Source: a virus (Duplodnaviria > Heunggongvirae > Uroviricota > Caudoviricetes). From it: a DNA stretch of 38,688 nucleotides. The position numbers and the translations under genes were made by a program. Within the stretch, counting starts at the first letter, position 1. Each line of letters starts with the position of its first letter. Shown piece after piece: positions 10,407 to 31,142 of this stretch. Location of the stretch: IMG/VR virus record IMGVR_UViG_2703718837_000002. One strand, given 5' to 3'. Below the pieces are notes generated by a model. The model had not been told where the DNA came from. It saw only the letters and a program-made list of their open reading frames with translations, and made no database searches.

Positions 10407-10650
10407 ACTCCGGCAGCTCCGCCGACTTTCGACAATGAAGTTATCGCTGGCGGCGATAGTTTTCGACTCGATTTTCATGGCGGTATATGTGCTCAATGAG
10501 ACGTGGCCACTGGAACCGCTATTGTATGCCGGGCTTCGGCTGTGCCTGACATTTTTGAGCATGGCTGCGAGATTGATGCAACAGAAAGAAACCGCTTCAG
10601 ATTGTCCACGCCGCGCGGTGCGCAAATATATGGCACGCAGGCGAAGATGA
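10399..10650 (+). CDS. small membrane protein downstream of lyz (lydD/lydE position)
   Basis: The start overlaps the lyz stop. 83 aa with two hydrophobic segments and a basic tail. Exact equivalence to P1 lydD or lydE was not verifiable. Confidence 0.55.
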   Translation: MNKLRQLRRLSTMKLSLAAIVFDSIFMAVYVLNETWPLEPLLYAGLRLCLTFLSMAARLMQQKETASDCPRRAVRKYMARRRR

Positions 10651-10660
10651 TTTAACCATT

Positions 10661-10693
10661 ATTGCTCTAATAAATTTGATTTATTAGAGCAAA
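10661..10693. promoter_or_regulatory. paired inverted C1 operators, left end of immI-like module 1
   Basis: A perfect ATTGCTCTAATAAATTT at 10661-10677, plus an inverted copy. Together they form TTGCTCTAATAAAT-TTG-ATTTATTAGAGCAA, 14-bp perfect arms. Confidence 0.85.
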
Positions 10694-10718
10694 TAACCTA
10701 CCATCGAACACGGCTCTA

Positions 10719-10747
10719 TTGATCTCATCGTCGTTCAGGCTTATAGT
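10719..10747 (+). promoter_or_regulatory. sigma70 promoter candidate for the c4-icd-ant transcript (module 1)
   Basis: TTGATC-N17-TATAGT. Both hexamers and the spacing are conserved in module 2. A GATC lies within the -35 element. Confidence 0.55.
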
Positions 10748-10778
10748 TCCACCGTCGTAGCAAATTCTGCGACCAGGT

Positions 10779-10799
10779 TTGACAGCCTGAATACGAATG
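10779..10799 (+). promoter_or_regulatory. upstream c4-complementary site pair a1/b1 (module 1)
   Basis: TTGACAG-N7-ACGAATG. Both heptamers are exact complements of the c4 loop elements at 10904-10923. Confidence 0.55.
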
Positions 10800-10866
10800 C
10801 GGACAACCGCAGATTTCCGATATTGCGGTATTTTTGTGTCCGTAAACCACGTTACGCCCGAATTAT

Positions 10867-10943
10867 GGTGGGGCGTGATGGGGAGGCTTCGGCCTGCTGG
10901 TTTCATTCGTGCCAGTCTGTCAACCCTGTCACGTCCTGCCACC
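10867..10943 (+). ncRNA. c4: c4 antisense RNA, 77 nt (module 1)
   Basis: 77 nt. A closing stem (GGUGG...CCACC and CGUGA/UCACG), an AGGC-UUCG-GCCU hairpin, and a single-stranded CAUUCGU-GCCAGU-CUGUCAA element complementary to the sites flanking it. The size matches the published 77 nt c4 RNA. Confidence 0.8.
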
Positions 10944-10946
10944 TGT

Positions 10947-10985
10947 TTGACAGCGGGTCGCAGGTTGTTAAACCTACGAATGAGG
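10947..10985 (+). promoter_or_regulatory. c4 target a'/b' overlapping the icd ribosome binding site (module 1)
   Basis: TTGACAG-N22-ACGAATGAGG. The b' element abuts and overlaps the SD GAGG, 8 nt before the icd ATG. Confidence 0.65.
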
Positions 10986-10993
10986 CCGTAACT

Positions 10994-11215
10994 ATGGTTA
11001 ATGCCAATCCTTGCGCACGCCCTGAATTTATCTGGCGCTTTTACTCCTGCCAGAAACGTCACTATCACTTCGTAATTGCACCGACAGAAGATGAGGCCCG
11101 CTCTCTGCTTCCTGACGCTCCCTGCATTTTCTCTGCCCGCTTTTCCACTGATTCGCGCAACTCTCTCAGTTACTGGTGCCTCCCTGTTAACGCTTCTGCT
11201 CAGGAGGGACTATGA
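10994..11215 (+). CDS. icd: Icd-like 73-aa protein (module 1)
   Basis: 73 codons, the published size of P1 icd. Its stop overlaps the ant1 start (ATGA). Conserved in all three modules. Confidence 0.8.
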   Translation: MVNANPCARPEFIWRFYSCQKRHYHFVIAPTEDEARSLLPDAPCIFSARFSTDSRNSLSYWCLPVNASAQEGL

Positions 11216-12303
11216 GAACGTCATTAGTCACCCGTGAAGAAATGATTGAGGCAATTGAACAGCACACATCCTGTATCAGTACCAGGGATATACCGGGTGT
11301 TATTGCCAACTACTTCATGATCACCAAACAACTTTACCGGAGAAAGGACAAGAACGCGGTTCACCGCATTCTGTTGTCTGATATCCGCGAATACCTGCTC
11401 GAACAGGGTCGTCTTGATTATGCAACCGTAACCGCCGAAGCACGCAAGGAGGCACACAGGATGAAAGCAACTAATGTTAAATCAGAAAAAATTACCCTGC
11501 CTTCAGTTCAGGAATCCGAGCTGGTGGTTGTTCAGAATCAGTCTGATGAAATTCCCGTTCTGGAATGGCTGGGAGTGCGTGTCGTAACGACCGAAACTCT
11601 TGCTAGAGGGTATGGTACCGATGAAGCCAATATTCGTAAAAATTTGTCTCGCAACTCCGATCGCTTTGAAGAAGGCAAGCATTACTATCTCTTAACCGGT
11701 TCAAAGTTAAAGGAATTTAAAAGGCTAGTGACTATTAGTCACTTGGTTAGCAAATATACAAGTCAGGTAATTCTCTGGACAGAGCGCGGCGCTGCACGCA
11801 TGTCTAAGATCGTGGACACAAATGAAGCATGGGCATTCTTTGAAAAACTGGAAGACAGCTACTTCCGACAAAAAGAACAGCAACCGGTCTCAATTCCCCA
11901 GACGCTTCCAGAAGCTCTGCGCCTGGCTGCCGAGTTGGCAGAACAGAAAATGCAACTGGAACAACAGCTGGTGGCCGCAGCCCCTAAAGTCGATTTTGCC
12001 GACCGGGTATCAGTGGCTAAGGGGATCCTGATTGGAAATTTTGCAAAGGTTGTTGGACTTAAGCAAAACGCGCTGTTTGCCTGGTTACGGGAGAACGGCA
12101 TCCTGATTGCGTCCGGCGGACGTAAAAATGTACCGTTTCAGCAGTACATAAACGCCGGGTATTTCACGGTGAAAGAAGTGGTGCTGGATGATGAAGATGG
12201 CTACCAGATACGGTTGACGCCCCAGCTAACGGGGAAAGGCCAGCAGTGGCTGACGCGTAAACTGCTCGATGCAGGTTTATTAAAGCCTGTAGCGGCTGAG
12301 TGA
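11212..12303 (+). CDS. ant1: antirepressor Ant1 (363 aa), with in-frame Ant2 starting at 11461
   Basis: An ORF6N/KilA-N-like middle region (VRVVTTETLARGYG...RFEEGKHY) and a KilAC/ANT C-terminal domain. An internal ATG at codon 84 is preceded by AAGGAGG and gives 280 aa, consistent with P1 Ant1 (~42 kDa) and Ant2 (~32 kDa). Confidence 0.85.
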   Translation: MRTSLVTREEMIEAIEQHTSCISTRDIPGVIANYFMITKQLYRRKDKNAVHRILLSDIREYLLEQGRLDYATVTAEARKEAHRMKATNVKSEKITLPSVQESELVVVQNQSDEIPVLEWLGVRVVTTETLARGYGTDEANIRKNLSRNSDRFEEGKHYYLLTGSKLKEFKRLVTISHLVSKYTSQVILWTERGAARMSKIVDTNEAWAFFEKLEDSYFRQKEQQPVSIPQTLPEALRLAAELAEQKMQLEQQLVAAAPKVDFADRVSVAKGILIGNFAKVVGLKQNALFAWLRENGILIASGGRKNVPFQQYINAGYFTVKEVVLDDEDGYQIRLTPQLTGKGQQWLTRKLLDAGLLKPVAAE

Positions 12304-12315
12304 TTAAATTAAAAA

Positions 12316-12333
12316 GGCGGCCTTTCGGCCGCC
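12316..12333 (-). terminator. conserved module-end hairpin, minus-strand terminator
   Basis: GGCGGCC-TTTC-GGCCGCC with a T-run on the minus-strand side. An identical hairpin ends module 2. Confidence 0.5.
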
Positions 12334-12347
12334 AGTGATTTCAGATA

Positions 12348-12373
12348 CCCCGGCAGCCGCCGGGGTTATTTTT
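12348..12373 (+). terminator. intrinsic terminator after ant (module 1)
   Basis: CCCCGGC-AGCC-GCCGGGG followed by TTATTTTT. Confidence 0.6.
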
Positions 12374-12378
12374 GGTGG

Positions 12379-15109
<2,731 letters not shown>

Positions 15110-24202: not shown

Positions 24203-24231
24203 TTGATCTTCCTGTTGTTCAGGCTTATAGT
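24203..24231 (+). promoter_or_regulatory. sigma70 promoter candidate for c4-icd-ant (module 2)
   Basis: TTGATC-N17-TATAGT, with hexamers identical to module 1. Confidence 0.55.
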
Positions 24232-24262
24232 TCCTACGTCATAGCAAATTCTGCGACCGGGT

Positions 24263-24283
24263 TTAGCAGCCTGAATGTACATG
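24263..24283 (+). promoter_or_regulatory. upstream c4-complementary site pair a1/b1 (module 2)
   Basis: TTAGCAG-N7-GTACATG, exact complements of the c4 elements at 24389-24408. Confidence 0.55.
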
Positions 24284-24351
24284 CGGACAACCGCAGATTT
24301 CCGATATTGCGGTATTTTTATGTCCGTAAAACCGCGTTACGCCCGAATTAT

Positions 24352-24428
24352 GGTGGGGCGTGATGGGGAGGCTTCGGCCTGCTGGTTTCATGTACGCCAG
24401 TCTGCTAACCCCGTCACGTCCTGCCACC
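24352..24428 (+). ncRNA. c4: c4 antisense RNA, 77 nt (module 2, different specificity)
   Basis: The same scaffold as module 1. The recognition elements read CAUGUAC and CUGCUAA instead of CAUUCGU and CUGUCAA. Confidence 0.8.
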
Positions 24429-24431
24429 TGT

Positions 24432-24470
24432 TTAGCAGCGGGTAGCAGGTTGTTAAACCTGTACATGAGG
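24432..24470 (+). promoter_or_regulatory. c4 target a'/b' overlapping the icd ribosome binding site (module 2)
   Basis: TTAGCAG-N22-GTACATGAGG, with the SD GAGG 8 nt before the icd ATG. Confidence 0.65.
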
Positions 24471-24478
24471 CCGTAACT

Positions 24479-24700
24479 ATGGTTAATGCCAATCCTTGCG
24501 CACGCCCTGAATTTATCTGGCGCTTCTATTCTTGTCAAAAACGTCACTATCACTTCGTTATCGCACCAACAGAAGATGAGGCACGTTCTCAGCTTCCGGA
24601 TGCTCCCTGCATTTTCTCCGCCCGCTTTTCTACCGATTCGCGCAATTCTCTCAGTTACTGGTGCCTCCCTGTTAACGCTTCGGCTCAGGAGGGGCTATGA
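24479..24700 (+). CDS. icd: Icd-like 73-aa protein (module 2)
   Basis: 73 codons, differing from the module 1 copy at one residue (L/Q). ATGA overlap with ant1. Confidence 0.8.
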   Translation: MVNANPCARPEFIWRFYSCQKRHYHFVIAPTEDEARSQLPDAPCIFSARFSTDSRNSLSYWCLPVNASAQEGL

Positions 24701-25809
24701 GAACGTCATTAGTCACCCGTGAAGAGATGATCGAGGCAATTGAACAGCACACTGCCTGTATCAGTACCAGGGATATACCAGGTGTTATTGCCAACTACTT
24801 CATGATCACCAAACAACTTTACCGGAGAAAGGACAAGAACGCGGTTCACCGCATTCTGCTAACCGATATCCGTGAATACCTGCTCGAACAGGGTCATCTG
24901 AATTATGCAACCGTCGCAGCCGAAGCACGCAAGGAGGCACACAGAATGAAAGCAACTAACGTTAAATCAGAAAAAATTCATGCACCTTCAGTTCAGGAAT
25001 CAGAGCTGGTGGTTGTTCAGAATCAGCCTGATGAAATTCCCGTTCTGGAATGGCAGGGAGTACGTGTCGTGACAACCGAAACTCTTGCTAGAGGGTATGG
25101 GACCGAAACTAATAACATCAAAGTTAACTATACGCGTAATGCTGATCGCTTTGAGGAAGGTAAACATTACTTTCTACTAACTGGTTCAAAATTAAAAGAA
25201 TTGAAGGACAAGGTTACTCAAAGTAACTTAGTCGCACCGCGAGCAAAGCACCTCACTCTCTGGACGGAACGCGGCGCAGCCCGCCACGCTAAAATGATCG
25301 AAACCGATCAGGCATGGGCATTCTTTGAAAAACTGGAAGACAGCTACTTCCGACAAAAAGAACAGCAACCGGTTGCAATCCCCCAGACGCTTCCAGAAGC
25401 CCTGCGCCTGGCTGCCGAACTGGCTGAACAAAAGCAACTTCTGGAACAGAAAGCCCACCAGCTAAATCAGCAGCTGGTGGCCGCAGCCCCCAAAGTCGAT
25501 TTTGCCGACCGGGTATCAGTGGCCAAGGGGATCCTGATTGGGAATTTTGCAAAGGTTGTTGGACTTAAGCAAAACGCGCTGTTTGCCTGGTTACGGGAGA
25601 ACGGCATCCTGATAGCGTCCGGCGGACGTAAAAATGTGCCGTTCCAGCAATACATCAACGCCGGGTATTTTTCTGTGAAAGAAGTGGTGCTGGATGATGA
25701 AGATGGCTATCAGATACGACTGACGCCCCAGTTAACGGGGAAAGGCCAGCAGTGGTTGACGCGTAAACTGCTCGATGCTGGCTTGTTAAAACCGGTGGCG
25801 GCTGAGTGA
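24697..25809 (+). CDS. ant1: antirepressor Ant1 (370 aa), with in-frame Ant2 starting at 24946
   Basis: The same architecture as module 1. The central ~65 aa are divergent, and there is a 7-aa insertion in the coiled-coil linker. Confidence 0.85.
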   Translation: MRTSLVTREEMIEAIEQHTACISTRDIPGVIANYFMITKQLYRRKDKNAVHRILLTDIREYLLEQGHLNYATVAAEARKEAHRMKATNVKSEKIHAPSVQESELVVVQNQPDEIPVLEWQGVRVVTTETLARGYGTETNNIKVNYTRNADRFEEGKHYFLLTGSKLKELKDKVTQSNLVAPRAKHLTLWTERGAARHAKMIETDQAWAFFEKLEDSYFRQKEQQPVAIPQTLPEALRLAAELAEQKQLLEQKAHQLNQQLVAAAPKVDFADRVSVAKGILIGNFAKVVGLKQNALFAWLRENGILIASGGRKNVPFQQYINAGYFSVKEVVLDDEDGYQIRLTPQLTGKGQQWLTRKLLDAGLLKPVAAE

Positions 25810-29471: not shown

Positions 29472-30584
29472 TTATTCAGCCGCCACCGGTTTTAACAAGC
29501 CAGCATCGAGCAGTTTACGCGTCAACCACTGCTGGCCTTTACCCGTTAATTGGGGCGTCAGCCGTATCTGGTAGCCATTTTCATCATCCAGCACCACTTC
29601 TTTCACCGTGAAATACCCCGCGTTGATGTACTGCTGGAACGGCACATTTTTACGTCCACCGGACGCTATCAGGATGCCGTTCTCCCGTAACCAGACAAAC
29701 AGCGCGTTTTGCTTAAGTCCAACAACCTTTGCAAAATTCCCAATCAGGATCCCTTTAGCTACTGATACCCGGTCGGCAAAATCGACTTTAGGAGCGGCGG
29801 CCACCAGCTGCTGATTTAGCTGGTGGGCTTTCTGTTCCAGAAGTTGCTTTTGTTCAGCCAGCTCGGCAGCCAGACGCAGGGCTTCTGGAAGCGTCTGGGG
29901 GATTGCGATCGGTTGCTGTTCTTTTTGTCGGAAGTAGTTGTCTTCCAGTTTTTCAAAGAATGCCCATGCTTCATTTGTGTCCACGATCTTAGACATGCGT
30001 GCAGCGCCGCGCTCTGTCCAGAGTGTAAGGCTTCTGGCGTTCTTACCAACAGAGTAACTTCCGGTTACTCTGTTCTTAAATTCTCTTAATTTTAAACCAG
30101 TTAGAAGAAAGTAATGCTTACCTTCTTCAAAGCGGTCAAGGTTGCGAGACAAATTGTTGCGAATATTGGCTTCATCGACCCCATACCCTCTAGCAAGAGT
30201 TTCGGTTGTCACGACACGTACTCCCTGCCATTCCAGAACGGGAATTTCATCCGGCTGATTCTGAACAACCACCAGCTCTGATTCCTGAACTGAAGGTGCA
30301 TAAATTTTTTCTGATTTAACGTTAGTTGCTTTCATTCTGTGTGCCTCCTTGCGTGCTTCGGCTGCGACGGTTGCGTAATTCAGATGACCCTGTTCGAGCA
30401 GGTATTCACGGATATCGGTTAGCAGAATGCGGTGAACCGCGTGTTTGTCCTTTCTCCGGTAAAGTTGTTTGGTGATCATGAAGTAGTTGGCAATAACGCC
30501 CGGTATATCCTTGGTACTGATACAGGCAGTGTGCTGTTCAATTGCCTCGATCATCTCTTCACGGGTGACTAATGACGTTCTCAT
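29472..30584 (-). CDS. ant1: antirepressor Ant1 (370 aa), with in-frame Ant2 starting at 30335 (module 3)
   Basis: The same architecture as modules 1 and 2. A third variant of the central region. AAGGAGG precedes the internal ATG. Confidence 0.85.
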   Translation of the reverse strand: MRTSLVTREEMIEAIEQHTACISTKDIPGVIANYFMITKQLYRRKDKHAVHRILLTDIREYLLEQGHLNYATVAAEARKEAHRMKATNVKSEKIYAPSVQESELVVVQNQPDEIPVLEWQGVRVVTTETLARGYGVDEANIRNNLSRNLDRFEEGKHYFLLTGLKLREFKNRVTGSYSVGKNARSLTLWTERGAARMSKIVDTNEAWAFFEKLEDNYFRQKEQQPIAIPQTLPEALRLAAELAEQKQLLEQKAHQLNQQLVAAAPKVDFADRVSVAKGILIGNFAKVVGLKQNALFVWLRENGILIASGGRKNVPFQQYINAGYFTVKEVVLDDENGYQIRLTPQLTGKGQQWLTRKLLDAGLLKPVAAE

Positions 30585-30802
30585 AGTCCCTCCTGAGCAG
30601 AAGCGTTAACAGGGAGGCACCAGTAACTGAGAGAGTTGCGCGAATCAGTGGAAAAGCGGGCAGAGAAAATGCAGGGAGCGTCAGGAAGCTGAGAACGGGC
30701 CTCATCTTCTGTCGGTGCAATAACGAAGTGATAGTGACGTTTCTGGCAGGAATAGAAGCGCCAGATGAATTCAGGATGAGTTGGGGTAGGGACAGTAGCC
30801 AT
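30581..30802 (-). CDS. icd: Icd-like 73-aa protein (module 3, variant N-terminus)
   Basis: 73 codons. The first 9 residues differ (MATVPTPTH versus MVNANPCAR) and the rest is essentially identical. ATGA overlap with ant1. Confidence 0.75.
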   Translation of the reverse strand: MATVPTPTHPEFIWRFYSCQKRHYHFVIAPTEDEARSQLPDAPCIFSARFSTDSRNSLSYWCLPVNASAQEGL

Positions 30803-30810
30803 AATGGCAG

Positions 30811-30852
30811 CCTCCTTTGACTAAGTTAAGGAGCTACCGCGTGAGGTCTCAA
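30811..30852 (-). promoter_or_regulatory. target a'/b' overlapping the icd ribosome binding site (module 3)
   Basis: The minus strand reads TTGAGAC-N24-GTCAAAGGAGG. Both elements complement the loop of the RNA at 30860-30938. The SD GGAGG is included. Confidence 0.6.
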
Positions 30853-30859
30853 TCTCAAT

Positions 30860-30938
30860 GGCGGTAGCACTGACTGGGTTGAGACTACCGGCGTCAAAGG
30901 GAACCGGCCTGCCTTTCGGCAGCCCAGCCAGCACTACC
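30860..30938 (-). ncRNA. c4-analogous antisense RNA on an unrelated scaffold (module 3)
   Basis: About 76-79 nt. A 13-bp closing stem (GGUAGUGCUGGCU / AGUCAGUGCUACC, including G-U pairs), a CUGCC-GAAA-GGCAG hairpin, and the single-stranded elements CCCUUUGAC and GUCUCAA. Confidence 0.65.
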
Positions 30939-30985
30939 ATTGATTTCGGAGCTAAACGCTACGTATGGCTGTGCGATGGCATGAC

Positions 30986-31011
30986 ACAAAAAAAAGACGC
31001 TTTCGGCGTCT
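30986..31011 (-). terminator. intrinsic terminator inside the module 3 leader, between the decoy site and the RNA gene
   Basis: The minus strand reads AGACGC-CGAAA-GCGTCT followed by T8. Confidence 0.55.
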
Positions 31012-31017
31012 GTGTCG

Positions 31018-31042
31018 CCTTTGACATTATTCGGGGTCTCAA
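31018..31042 (-). promoter_or_regulatory. upstream complementary site pair a1/b1 (module 3)
   Basis: The minus strand reads TTGAGAC-N10-GTCAAAGG. Confidence 0.5.
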
Positions 31043-31142
31043 TCCCGGCACCCGTTTTAATGAGGTGCCTGATAAGCATAAACCGAAAATGCCTCAAGGC
31101 GCAAGAGGTCAGGTTCAATGTAACATCGGCAGTTAAAAAACA

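Follow-up and report, generated by a model that had tools for sequence, protein, structure and literature searches.

The window analysed here, 38,688 nucleotides of IMG/VR virus record IMGVR_UViG_2703718837_000002, is part of a 99.8-kb P1-like phage-plasmid of Escherichia albertii (99.9% identity to the ant genes of, e.g., pEA18_2, NZ_CP117639.1). It carries three ant genes, each with a palindrome embedded at the same codons, inside the region encoding an ORF6N domain. We consider it probable, from sequence comparison, that this palindrome is the DNA site for the recognition helix of that same ORF6N domain, a dimer of which would bind an operator lying in its own codons. The three genes, taken from the list of open reading frames (ORFs) with Pfam domains added, are as follows.

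11212..12303, + strand: ant copy 1 (ant1), 363 aa, ORF6N plus ANT/KilAC (PF10543 at aa 117-200, PF03374 at aa 250-352)
24697..25809, + strand: ant copy 2 (ant2), 370 aa, ORF6N plus ANT/KilAC
29472..30584, - strand: ant copy 3 (ant3), 370 aa, ORF6N plus ANT/KilAC

ORF6N (PF10543) is central in each Ant protein, at about aa 116-200 (64.7, 73.2, and 66.7 bits; curated cut-off, 27.8), and ANT/KilAC (PF03374) is C-terminal (107-112 bits; curated cut-off, 25.3). The three proteins are pairwise 88-90% identical. ant1 is 99.9% identical to E. albertii plasmid genes labelled antirepressor, and the window ant genes match parts of the P1, P7, RCS47, and JL22 ant genes at 86-89% identity.

A sequence-only reading of the window had drawn attention to an inverted repeat at the same codons of all three genes, inside the most divergent segment of Ant. 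The repeats have the sequences that it claimed and share a centre codon, and a comparison of the three proteins places residues 173-177, V-T-x-S-(H/N/Y), in their most divergent stretch. In every copy the dyad centre is the middle base of the x codon. The perfect 11-bp arms of copy 3 were also described correctly, with the position (given as 30049-30075) off by a single base; the repeat lies one base to the left.

11722..11748, strandless: 27-bp dyad element of ant1; palindrome AGTGACTA-T-TAGTCACT at 11727-11743, centre 11735; inner site GTGACT-ATT-AGTCAC at 11728-11742
25207..25233, strandless: 27-bp dyad element of ant2; palindrome GGTTACT-CAA-AGTAACT at 25212-25228, centre 25220, outermost pair G.T; inner site GTTACT-CAA-AGTAAC at 25213-25227
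30048..30074, strandless: 27-bp dyad element of ant3; palindrome AACAGAGTAAC-TTCCG-GTTACTCTGTT at 30048-30074, 11-bp perfect arms, centre 30061; inner site GTAAC-N5-GTTAC at 30054-30068

Each site consists of two 6-bp half-sites (pairs d2-d7 of the dyad; GTNACT in the window) with a 3-bp centre between them, the half-site centres being 9-10 bp apart. The dyad centre ranks first or second among the ~1085 possible centres in each ant gene. The amino-acid sequence alone raises the expected pairing here to 5-7 of 14, against 3.5 gene-wide. When synonymous codons were resampled with the protein held fixed, the probability of reaching the observed number of pairs was 0.004, 0.015, and 0.002 for ant1, ant2, and ant3, respectively (full range, 5e-5 to 0.015); codon choice thus adds pairing beyond that supplied by the amino-acid sequence.

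The element was followed through ant and ORF6N genes gathered from viral contigs, genomes, metagenomes, and annotated phages, the strongest palindrome being sought between the conserved anchors RF.EG.H and W.E.GAAR. Its centre and codon phase were those of the window copies in 75 of 76 distinct ORF6N regions, and a more distant set agreed in 43 of 45 (118/121 in total). About 50 different five-residue cores occur among these regions, including VTISH, VTGSY, ATDSG, VALNY, LSFSE, PSLRG, NSLRV, and LTLSK. Codons -1/+1 to -4/+4 are mutually reverse-complementary (ACT/AGT, TCT/AGA, GTA/TAC, GCC/GGC, AGA/TCT, TTG/CAA, and AAC/GTT); since codons -5/+5 are not, the element is nine codons (27 nt) long. 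When the palindromes of the domain were ranked in 10 phages of Bacillus, Lactococcus, Paenibacillus, Azospirillum, and Acinetobacter, that of the loop came first in 6 and second in 3; in some of these phages it stands in another reading frame. Exact matches to the ant1-type core, searched for in 2.9 million viral contigs, fell in ORF6N genes in 83 of 111 instances.

The two arms change together. Across the 76 distinct 33-mers, 87.4% of cells are paired (shuffling lowers this to 60.8 +/- 1.1, and none of 500 shuffles reaches the observed value), changes on both sides are seen at 12 of 12 pairs, and compensatory cells number 222 versus 81.5 +/- 6.3 when shuffled. The covariation score is 0.631, versus 0.209 for shuffled data and 0.04-0.15 for slid controls, and sliding the partner by 1-3 columns lowers pairing to 31-42%. 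Mismatches are tolerated at d5 and d10. Complementarity therefore persists in an alignment far wider than the three copies, and the compensatory changes bear out the idea of the sequence-only reading that the amino-acid change tracks base pairing. Its more specific statement, that the third base of the Val codon is always complementary to the first base of the H/N/Y codon, holds in the window (G-C in ant1, T-A in ant2, A-T in ant3) and fails beyond it, where 26 of 40 Val-containing variant rows comply (~25% expected) and the pair is broken in, for example, the VTLSN type (GTG/AAC).

Two side observations concern the form of the element. Some ORF6N proteins carry a tandem pair of palindromic units in one loop (L260, L273, L245; protein P0083), i.e., two different sites per gene; the units are NLR-VTLSN-SQN and then LQ-PSLRG-LQI in one example, DR-VSQRY-SV and then DR-VTLSH-SV in another. 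In L092, a close relative of ant1 (type-A variant), two synonymous Leu changes (CTA->CTG and TTG->CTG) have turned pair d8 from A-T into G-C; with its in-frame stop (LTG*KLKEF), this copy may be a pseudogene, its dyad still intact.

What points from a palindrome to a reader is a second level of covariation. Whatever intervenes, the core changes in concert with a stretch (DEANIRKNLSRN in Ant1) that lies ~30-35 residues upstream of it. VALNY is always accompanied by RIRQNHHEN, whichever of two unrelated flank families and two N-terminal contexts surrounds it; NSLRV pairs with ERQR[LV]TNNFNRN, VTQSN with NNIKVN, and AT.SG with EK[SN]IRMN. Conversely, a single flank type (..SVKIARNV) bears at least six cores, every one with its own helix. 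In 130 distinct proteins, the inner pairs d3-d7 share most mutual information not with adjacent codons but with five upstream columns at a spacing of i, i+3/4, i+7/8. The best predictors are column 33 for d6 (0.91 of entropy), column 36 for d7 (0.78), column 41 for d3 (0.86), columns 33 and 37 for d5, and column 40 for d4; columns 33, 36, 37, 40, and 41 are Ant1 residues A139, R142, K143, S146, and R147. The outer pairs d8-d13 are predicted best by adjacent codons and flanks only.

An AlphaFold2 (AF2) model of the domain (predicted local distance difference test score of 82, falling to ~70 near the loop) makes helix 39-48 the second helix of a helix-turn-helix (HTH). The five covarying residues occupy positions 2, 5, 6, 9, and 10 of this modelled helix, which in HTH proteins form the outward, base-contacting face. 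As modelled, the covarying residues would face outward and the invariant I141, N144, and L145 inward, and the core motif is placed at the end of the next long helix and in the following loop. Fold matches, all weak (E 0.07-4), were to the Dachshund/Ski winged-helix (DHD), to Mbp1 APSES (1mb1, 1bm8), and to PCG2-DNA (4ux5), and ORF6N probably has a winged-helix/helix-turn-helix fold of the KilA-N/APSES type. The predicted recognition helices of the window are listed below.

11623..11652, + strand: ant1, EANIRKNLSR, aa 138-147 (AF2 helix 39-48); covarying residues A139, R142, K143, S146, R147
25108..25137, + strand: ant2, TNNIKVNYTR; code residues N, K, V, T, R
30144..30173, - strand: ant3, EANIRNNLSR; code residues A, R, N, S, R

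The relation of helix to site is near-deterministic. From 80 distinct helix/site combinations a code table was compiled, here in Ant1 residue numbering.

Residue 142 and d7: R/K with G, 55/58; Q with C, 16/17; T/H with A, 4/4
Residue 139 and d6: K with C, 23/25; residues other than K with T or A
Residue 147 and d3: R with C, 57/58; N with A, 6/7
Residue 146 and d4: S/T with A, 38/45; H with G, 8/9
Residue 143 and d5: K with G, 8/13; V with T, 7/8; M with C, 11/17

Fisher p values, uncorrected for phylogeny, range from 0.0025 to 7.5e-36 and are <=1.5e-7 in 10 of 11 tests. Because R and K are associated with one and the same base despite their unrelated codons, it is the amino acid that carries the link, and not nucleotide complementarity. 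The window genes are classified as A-R-K-S-R with GTGACT (ant1), N-K-V-T-R with GTTACT (ant2), and A-R-N-S-R with GTAACY (ant3). Helix residue 143 is K, V, and N in ant1, ant2, and ant3, and d5 is G, T, and A; the covarying base pair singled out by the sequence-only reading thus tracks helix residue 143.

The code transfers to unrelated phages. In annotated phages outside the derivation set it gave the right base at 90 of 126 half-site positions (25% expected), the prediction from residue 147 was right in every test genome with a palindrome in the loop, and Bacillus phage McSteamy agrees at all five positions. In three of the genes tested the palindrome lies in a different frame.

Acinetobacter BUCTT11: other frame, peptide VGDLKSL; half-site GTGACT; helix class D-K-Q-S-R
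Acinetobacter Attikon1: other frame, peptide VSSLKLL; half-site GTAGTT; helix class V-R-Q-N-E (VALNY class)
Azospirillum Cd: other frame, peptide DPLWEGQ; half-site CCCTCT; helix class K-Q-N-S-R (PSLRG class)

The peptides of BUCTT11, Attikon1, and Cd are unrelated, yet each half-site is the one expected from the helix class.

Among the other explanations considered, the least improbable is that the palindrome is a hairpin in ant mRNA, serving RNase processing or stability, a pause, or as a protein-binding stem; we think it unlikely. Such a hairpin would suit the compensatory changes at all 12 pairs, the folding energies of the sense strand (-10.0, -10.5, and -14.4 kcal/mol for ant1 to ant3; z = -2.6, -2.4, and -4.9), and the excess of G.T over A.C mismatches (27 versus 8 in the first 49 sequences, d10 excluded). 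However, G.U asymmetry does not separate the two strands, nor does stability: means over 74 distinct elements are -11.1 kcal/mol for sense and -11.3 kcal/mol for antisense, and 30 clusters divide 12 versus 16 (Wilcoxon p = 0.64). In one large family C.A is conserved at d10, where only the antisense strand would give a wobble G.U, and complementarity is enriched at d1 (22/49), although d1 is unable to pair in a hairpin. Rfam at gathering thresholds returned no family at the three sites, giving C4, c4-a1b1, and isrK only. Of the marks of a structured cis-regulatory RNA, compensatory changes were thus found, while a preference for the transcribed strand and a match to an RNA family were not. Finally, an RNA stem leaves unexplained why the site tracks amino acids on one face of an upstream helix. 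Given the equal strand stability, the d1 and d10 patterns, and the lack of a tail or Rfam match, the constraint looks like duplex dyad symmetry and not a transcript fold. The processing or termination hairpin suggested by the sequence-only reading therefore finds no support. An intrinsic terminator was rejected for both strands, as no T run follows any site and the ant1 site is not among the 8 terminator-like sites in 10600-12500.

A second explanation accepts the coupling between helix and core and ascribes it to the loop packing against the helix within the protein, the palindrome being there for an unrelated reason. Size compensation is conceivable, since Lys139 goes with small core residues (A/P/T and G) and a small residue 139 with V and H/Y/N. 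But the core residues sort by codon base and not by chemistry, with V and A accompanying R/K, L and P accompanying Q, and N, T, I, and K accompanying T/H; the covarying positions 2, 5, 6, 9, and 10 are on the outward helix face; and the three other-frame genes keep a half-site that fits the helix class. With the frame-shifted cases and the successful predictions in other phages, packing inside the protein is excluded as the origin of the coupling, and we assign this explanation only a very small probability.

Equally little probability goes to the palindrome being functionless, whether an ancestral inverted repeat kept by quasipalindrome template switching or a by-product of a conserved peptide. 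Template switching homogenises imperfect inverted repeats in E. coli, equally stable strands are compatible with a DNA-level process, and the amino-acid sequence by itself accounts for part of the pairing, as quantified above. Set against these points are the significant contribution of codon choice and the recurrence of the element at the same place in Firmicute, alphaproteobacterial, and gammaproteobacterial phages, sometimes in another frame. Cross-strand residue pairing would not be the cause either, with the motif modelled at a helix end and loop and not in a beta-hairpin; a protein beta-hairpin with cross-strand covariation was rejected on the same AF2 model. A neutral origin, moreover, cannot yield the coupling to helix residues or a chemically sensible code (R/K-G, N-A).

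The likeness of the core to the P1 late-promoter box, which the sequence-only reading had also raised, suggests that the arms might be Lpa boxes and the palindrome an Lpa-binding site or a late promoter within ant. The P1 late-promoter pattern, taken from the P1 GenBank annotation, is AAGT[G/T]ACTT, 4 nt, and TANNNT. Arm 2 of ant2 fits the box at 9 of 9 positions and on the antisense strand completes the full pattern (AAGTTACTT-tgag-TAACCT, 25229-25211, - strand); the ant1 and ant3 arms fit at 8 of 9. Neither ant1 nor ant3, however, has TANNNT at the required spacing on either strand, and the likeness to the box follows largely from the half-site GTNACT being nearly self-complementary. The true late promoters of the window lie upstream of late genes, and the same element occurs with other sequences (GCCACT, CCATCT, CTGAAT) in lambdoid, Acinetobacter, Bacillus, and Lactococcus phages. 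Because these phages are not P1-like, Lpa cannot account for the element in general, and we regard an Lpa site or promoter as highly improbable. The resemblance is real at the level of AGTNACT; the promoter role has little support, a -10 at the right spacing being present only for ant2 antisense. From that pattern, Lpa-dependent transcription might run antisense through icd and c4 of the ant2 module (module 2). A scan of the window placed late-promoter patterns at 506 (+), 9743 (+), 15161 (-), 24033 (-), and 33895 (-); they comprise patterns that match P1 LPdar, LPlyz, LPpro, and LPmat exactly or almost exactly and a further pattern upstream of the pacA-like gene, and the LPmat-like site has CAGAAT as its -10, as in P1.

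The remaining candidates can be dealt with briefly: a recombination breakpoint, also proposed by the sequence-only reading, is not specifically supported, although flanks do reassort around the core; LexA and CRP sites have unfit spacing and orientation (by eye); and no in-frame slippery heptamer for a programmed frameshift was seen upstream of the three sites (by eye).

The reading that we prefer remains an operator set in the codons of its own reader, and it is from the observations above that we infer binding, dimerisation, and a regulatory outcome. The second helix of the HTH (E138-R147 in Ant1) would read the dyad ~80 bp downstream in the same ORF. An ORF6N dimer would lie on one DNA face, and the outer arms widen the symmetry to 27 bp. 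Specificity classes would arise by concerted change of the helix and both half-sites; the half-sites being codons, changes in the site would drag residues along as reverse-complement codon pairs, linking V with H/N/Y, A with G, T with S, R with S, N with V, and L with Q. On these terms, the three window copies would constitute three orthogonal classes. Of the roles offered by the sequence-only reading, a protein-binding site is the best supported, with the ORF6N domain of Ant, and not Lpa, as the putative binder. The protein would likely act in cis on its own gene, for example, as an intragenic roadblock that brings about negative autoregulation. None of the three sites recurs as a perfect copy elsewhere in the window or in the remaining 61 kb of pEA18_2; each perfect site seems private to its own gene, which suggests action in cis. 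Conventional operators elsewhere were rejected as a candidate, the same sequence holding only chance-level copies with 1-2 mismatches. Two near-matches within chance expectation may be recorded: GTTAGTCAGAGTAAC, intergenic, with 1 mismatch to the ant2 site (L448 22523-22537; plasmid ~93522), and GTATCTTCCGGATAC, a perfect palindrome whose centre is that of the ant3 site (L448 23876-23890; plasmid ~94875).

Several points weigh against an operator of this kind. The site is in the middle of an ORF, where it neither overlaps nor visibly controls a promoter as HTH operators do, and no sigma-70-like promoter was called at the ant1 site. Its 27 bp of symmetry are long for a simple HTH dimer, and the outer arms (d8-d13) are symmetric yet without a protein partner. 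Pair d5 is mismatched in ~40% of sequences, and the code is loosest at the corresponding residue 143, where K predicts G in the 8/13 cases listed above and where TP901-1 and Stx1 AU5 are missed. Some ORF6N members (Brochothrix BL3, L107, L139) lack the element. The HTH assignment comes from a single AF2 model and weak fold matches (E 0.07-0.7), and a sequence search of the Protein Data Bank (PDB) returned no ORF6N relative with a solved structure. The association statistics, lastly, ignore phylogeny; the argument for independence is carried by flank reassortment, distant taxa, and the frame-shifted cases.

A wider reading, which we advance more tentatively and to which we lend slightly less than even credence, is that ORF6N, and apparently also the Rha-like domain of P1-type Ant, form self-addressing gene-protein pairs, with private operators and orthogonal coexisting modules. 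Antirepressors of this class would on that view be sequence-specific DNA binders working in cis on their own gene, an undescribed mode of regulation, or of incompatibility between modules, with a readable recognition code. The N-terminal domains of antirepressors may carry such self-embedded sites quite generally.

The central domain of P1-type Ant, which has no Pfam match and is Rha-like by eye, has its own covarying palindrome at a fixed codon (L063 at ~nt 1960-1980, gene nt 470; L065, L075, L076, and L079). The sequences are ACCTACACAA-A-AAGTGTAGGT, TACTACGAAA-T-TTTCGTAGTG, and GGGTTACGAAA-T-TTTCGTAACCC. This core follows the upstream helix and not the downstream flank (RNNKFIEK with YTKSV, RNNDFIAR with YE[IN]FV); in P1's own Ant1, the palindrome is weak. 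Outside genes, a pair of units lies at 10325-10390 of L418 after a terminator-like hairpin, TTTGCGGGTGACTAATAGTCACGCACAAATT followed by AACTAACCCTCTTAAAGAGGTTAAGTT, with a frame that ends at a stop (LRVTNSHAQIPN*). The pair is either a gene remnant or a set of free-standing operators, and a Rha-like gene is nearby on the opposite strand.

ORF6N/KilA-N-type "antirepressors" are among the commonest and least understood genes of temperate phages, and we know of no defined DNA target for them. A literature search (ORF6N, KilA-N with palindrome, intragenic antirepressor operators) did not find the element described, most subscription journals being outside its coverage. Should the preferred reading hold, the binding site of every such protein could be read from its own gene, and a first recognition code would become available (position 5, R/K-G; position 2, K-C:G; position 10, R-C and N-A), making specificity predictable from sequence. 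The hypervariability of the loop and its reverse-complement codon pairs would be accounted for, as a rare DNA-level constraint dictating protein sequence, as would the coexistence of several ant modules on one replicon. Proteins labelled antirepressors may then act on DNA.

Each window ant gene has one C4 antisense RNA upstream (3 matches to RF01695, ~70-75 bits).

10861..10946, + strand: C4 antisense RNA, module 1 (Rfam RF01695, 69.8 bits)
24346..24431, + strand: C4 antisense RNA, module 2 (Rfam RF01695, 70.8 bits)
30857..30944, - strand: C4 antisense RNA, module 3 (Rfam RF01695, 75.4 bits)

An icd-like coding sequence overlapping the ant start is annotated in identical plasmids. Judged from these matches and annotations, the window holds three complete c4-icd-ant modules. 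Four immI-type modules are therefore found on one replicon: three c4-icd-ant(ORF6N) modules at 10741-12303, 24225-25809, and 29472-31068, plus a canonical P1-type icd-ant-kilA-repL module outside the window (NZ_CP117639.1 87524-90621; L448 16525-19622). The c4-a1b1 target elements are at 10741-10793 (module 1) and 24225-24277 (module 2); module 3 has isrK instead, with an Rfam match (59.8 bits; cut-off, 50) at 30990-31068 (-), just upstream of the third C4 RNA.

Among known systems, a precedent is HK022 Roi, which reportedly binds a site within its own gene. Its C-terminal ANT/KilAC domain is homologous to that of the window Ant proteins, and the JL22 homologue of the window ant genes is annotated "roi." The N-terminal domain of Roi, in contrast, is Rha-like (a weak PF09669 match, 25.2 bits, below the cut-off) without ORF6N, and no strong palindrome was found in HK022 roi, whereas the window ant genes each have one. 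To our knowledge, neither a recognition code nor embedding of the site in the codons of the DNA-binding domain has been described for Roi. An 8-bp perfect palindrome in the ANT-domain codons G-N-F-A-K-V, TTTGCAAA, is common to the three ant genes (12037-12049, 25543-25555, and 29726-29738) and HK022 roi (L325 5111-5126); it may merely follow from the conserved peptide. Lambda O, too, has binding sites, the ori iterons, within its own gene, and these covary with protein specificity among related phages, an arrangement analogous to the one proposed for ant, where a DNA-binding protein would likewise have its site in its own coding sequence. The iterons, however, are four repeats that form a replication origin and encode a linker, whereas ant usually has a single dyad within binding-domain codons; with three ant dyads on one replicon, an origin role is unlikely.

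The P1 immI region (c4 RNA-icd-ant1/ant2) has in common with the window modules the upstream C4 RNA and the icd-like gene overlapping the ant start, and the N-terminal 110 residues and C-terminal ANT domain of Ant are likewise common to both. The central domain differs, being ORF6N in the window, while the P1 type lacks a Pfam match and P1 Ant1 is without ORF6N; P1 matches only nt 679-1082 of the window ant gene. The window plasmid also has three extra modules besides the canonical one. The resemblance to P1 late promoters (Lpa box AAGTNACTT at -22) lies in the AGTNACT that the ant half-sites also contain; the ant sites differ in having no -10 in two of three copies, in being intragenic, and in occurring in non-P1-like phages as well. 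The KilA-N/APSES DNA-binding domains, such as that of Mbp1, belong to the same fold class as the ORF6N model, an HTH with a recognition helix, although the matches are weak. APSES targets are the promoters of other genes, while the ORF6N site is in its own gene. Lambdoid repressors such as those of 434 and P22 bind dyad operators with half-sites about one helical turn apart and draw their specificity from outward residues of the recognition helix. The ant element resembles these operators in its two-fold symmetry, in the ~10-bp separation of its half-site centres, and in its covariation with outward helix residues of ORF6N. The operators of 434 and P22, however, are intergenic and control promoters, whereas the putative operator in ant would consist of the codons of the reader itself.

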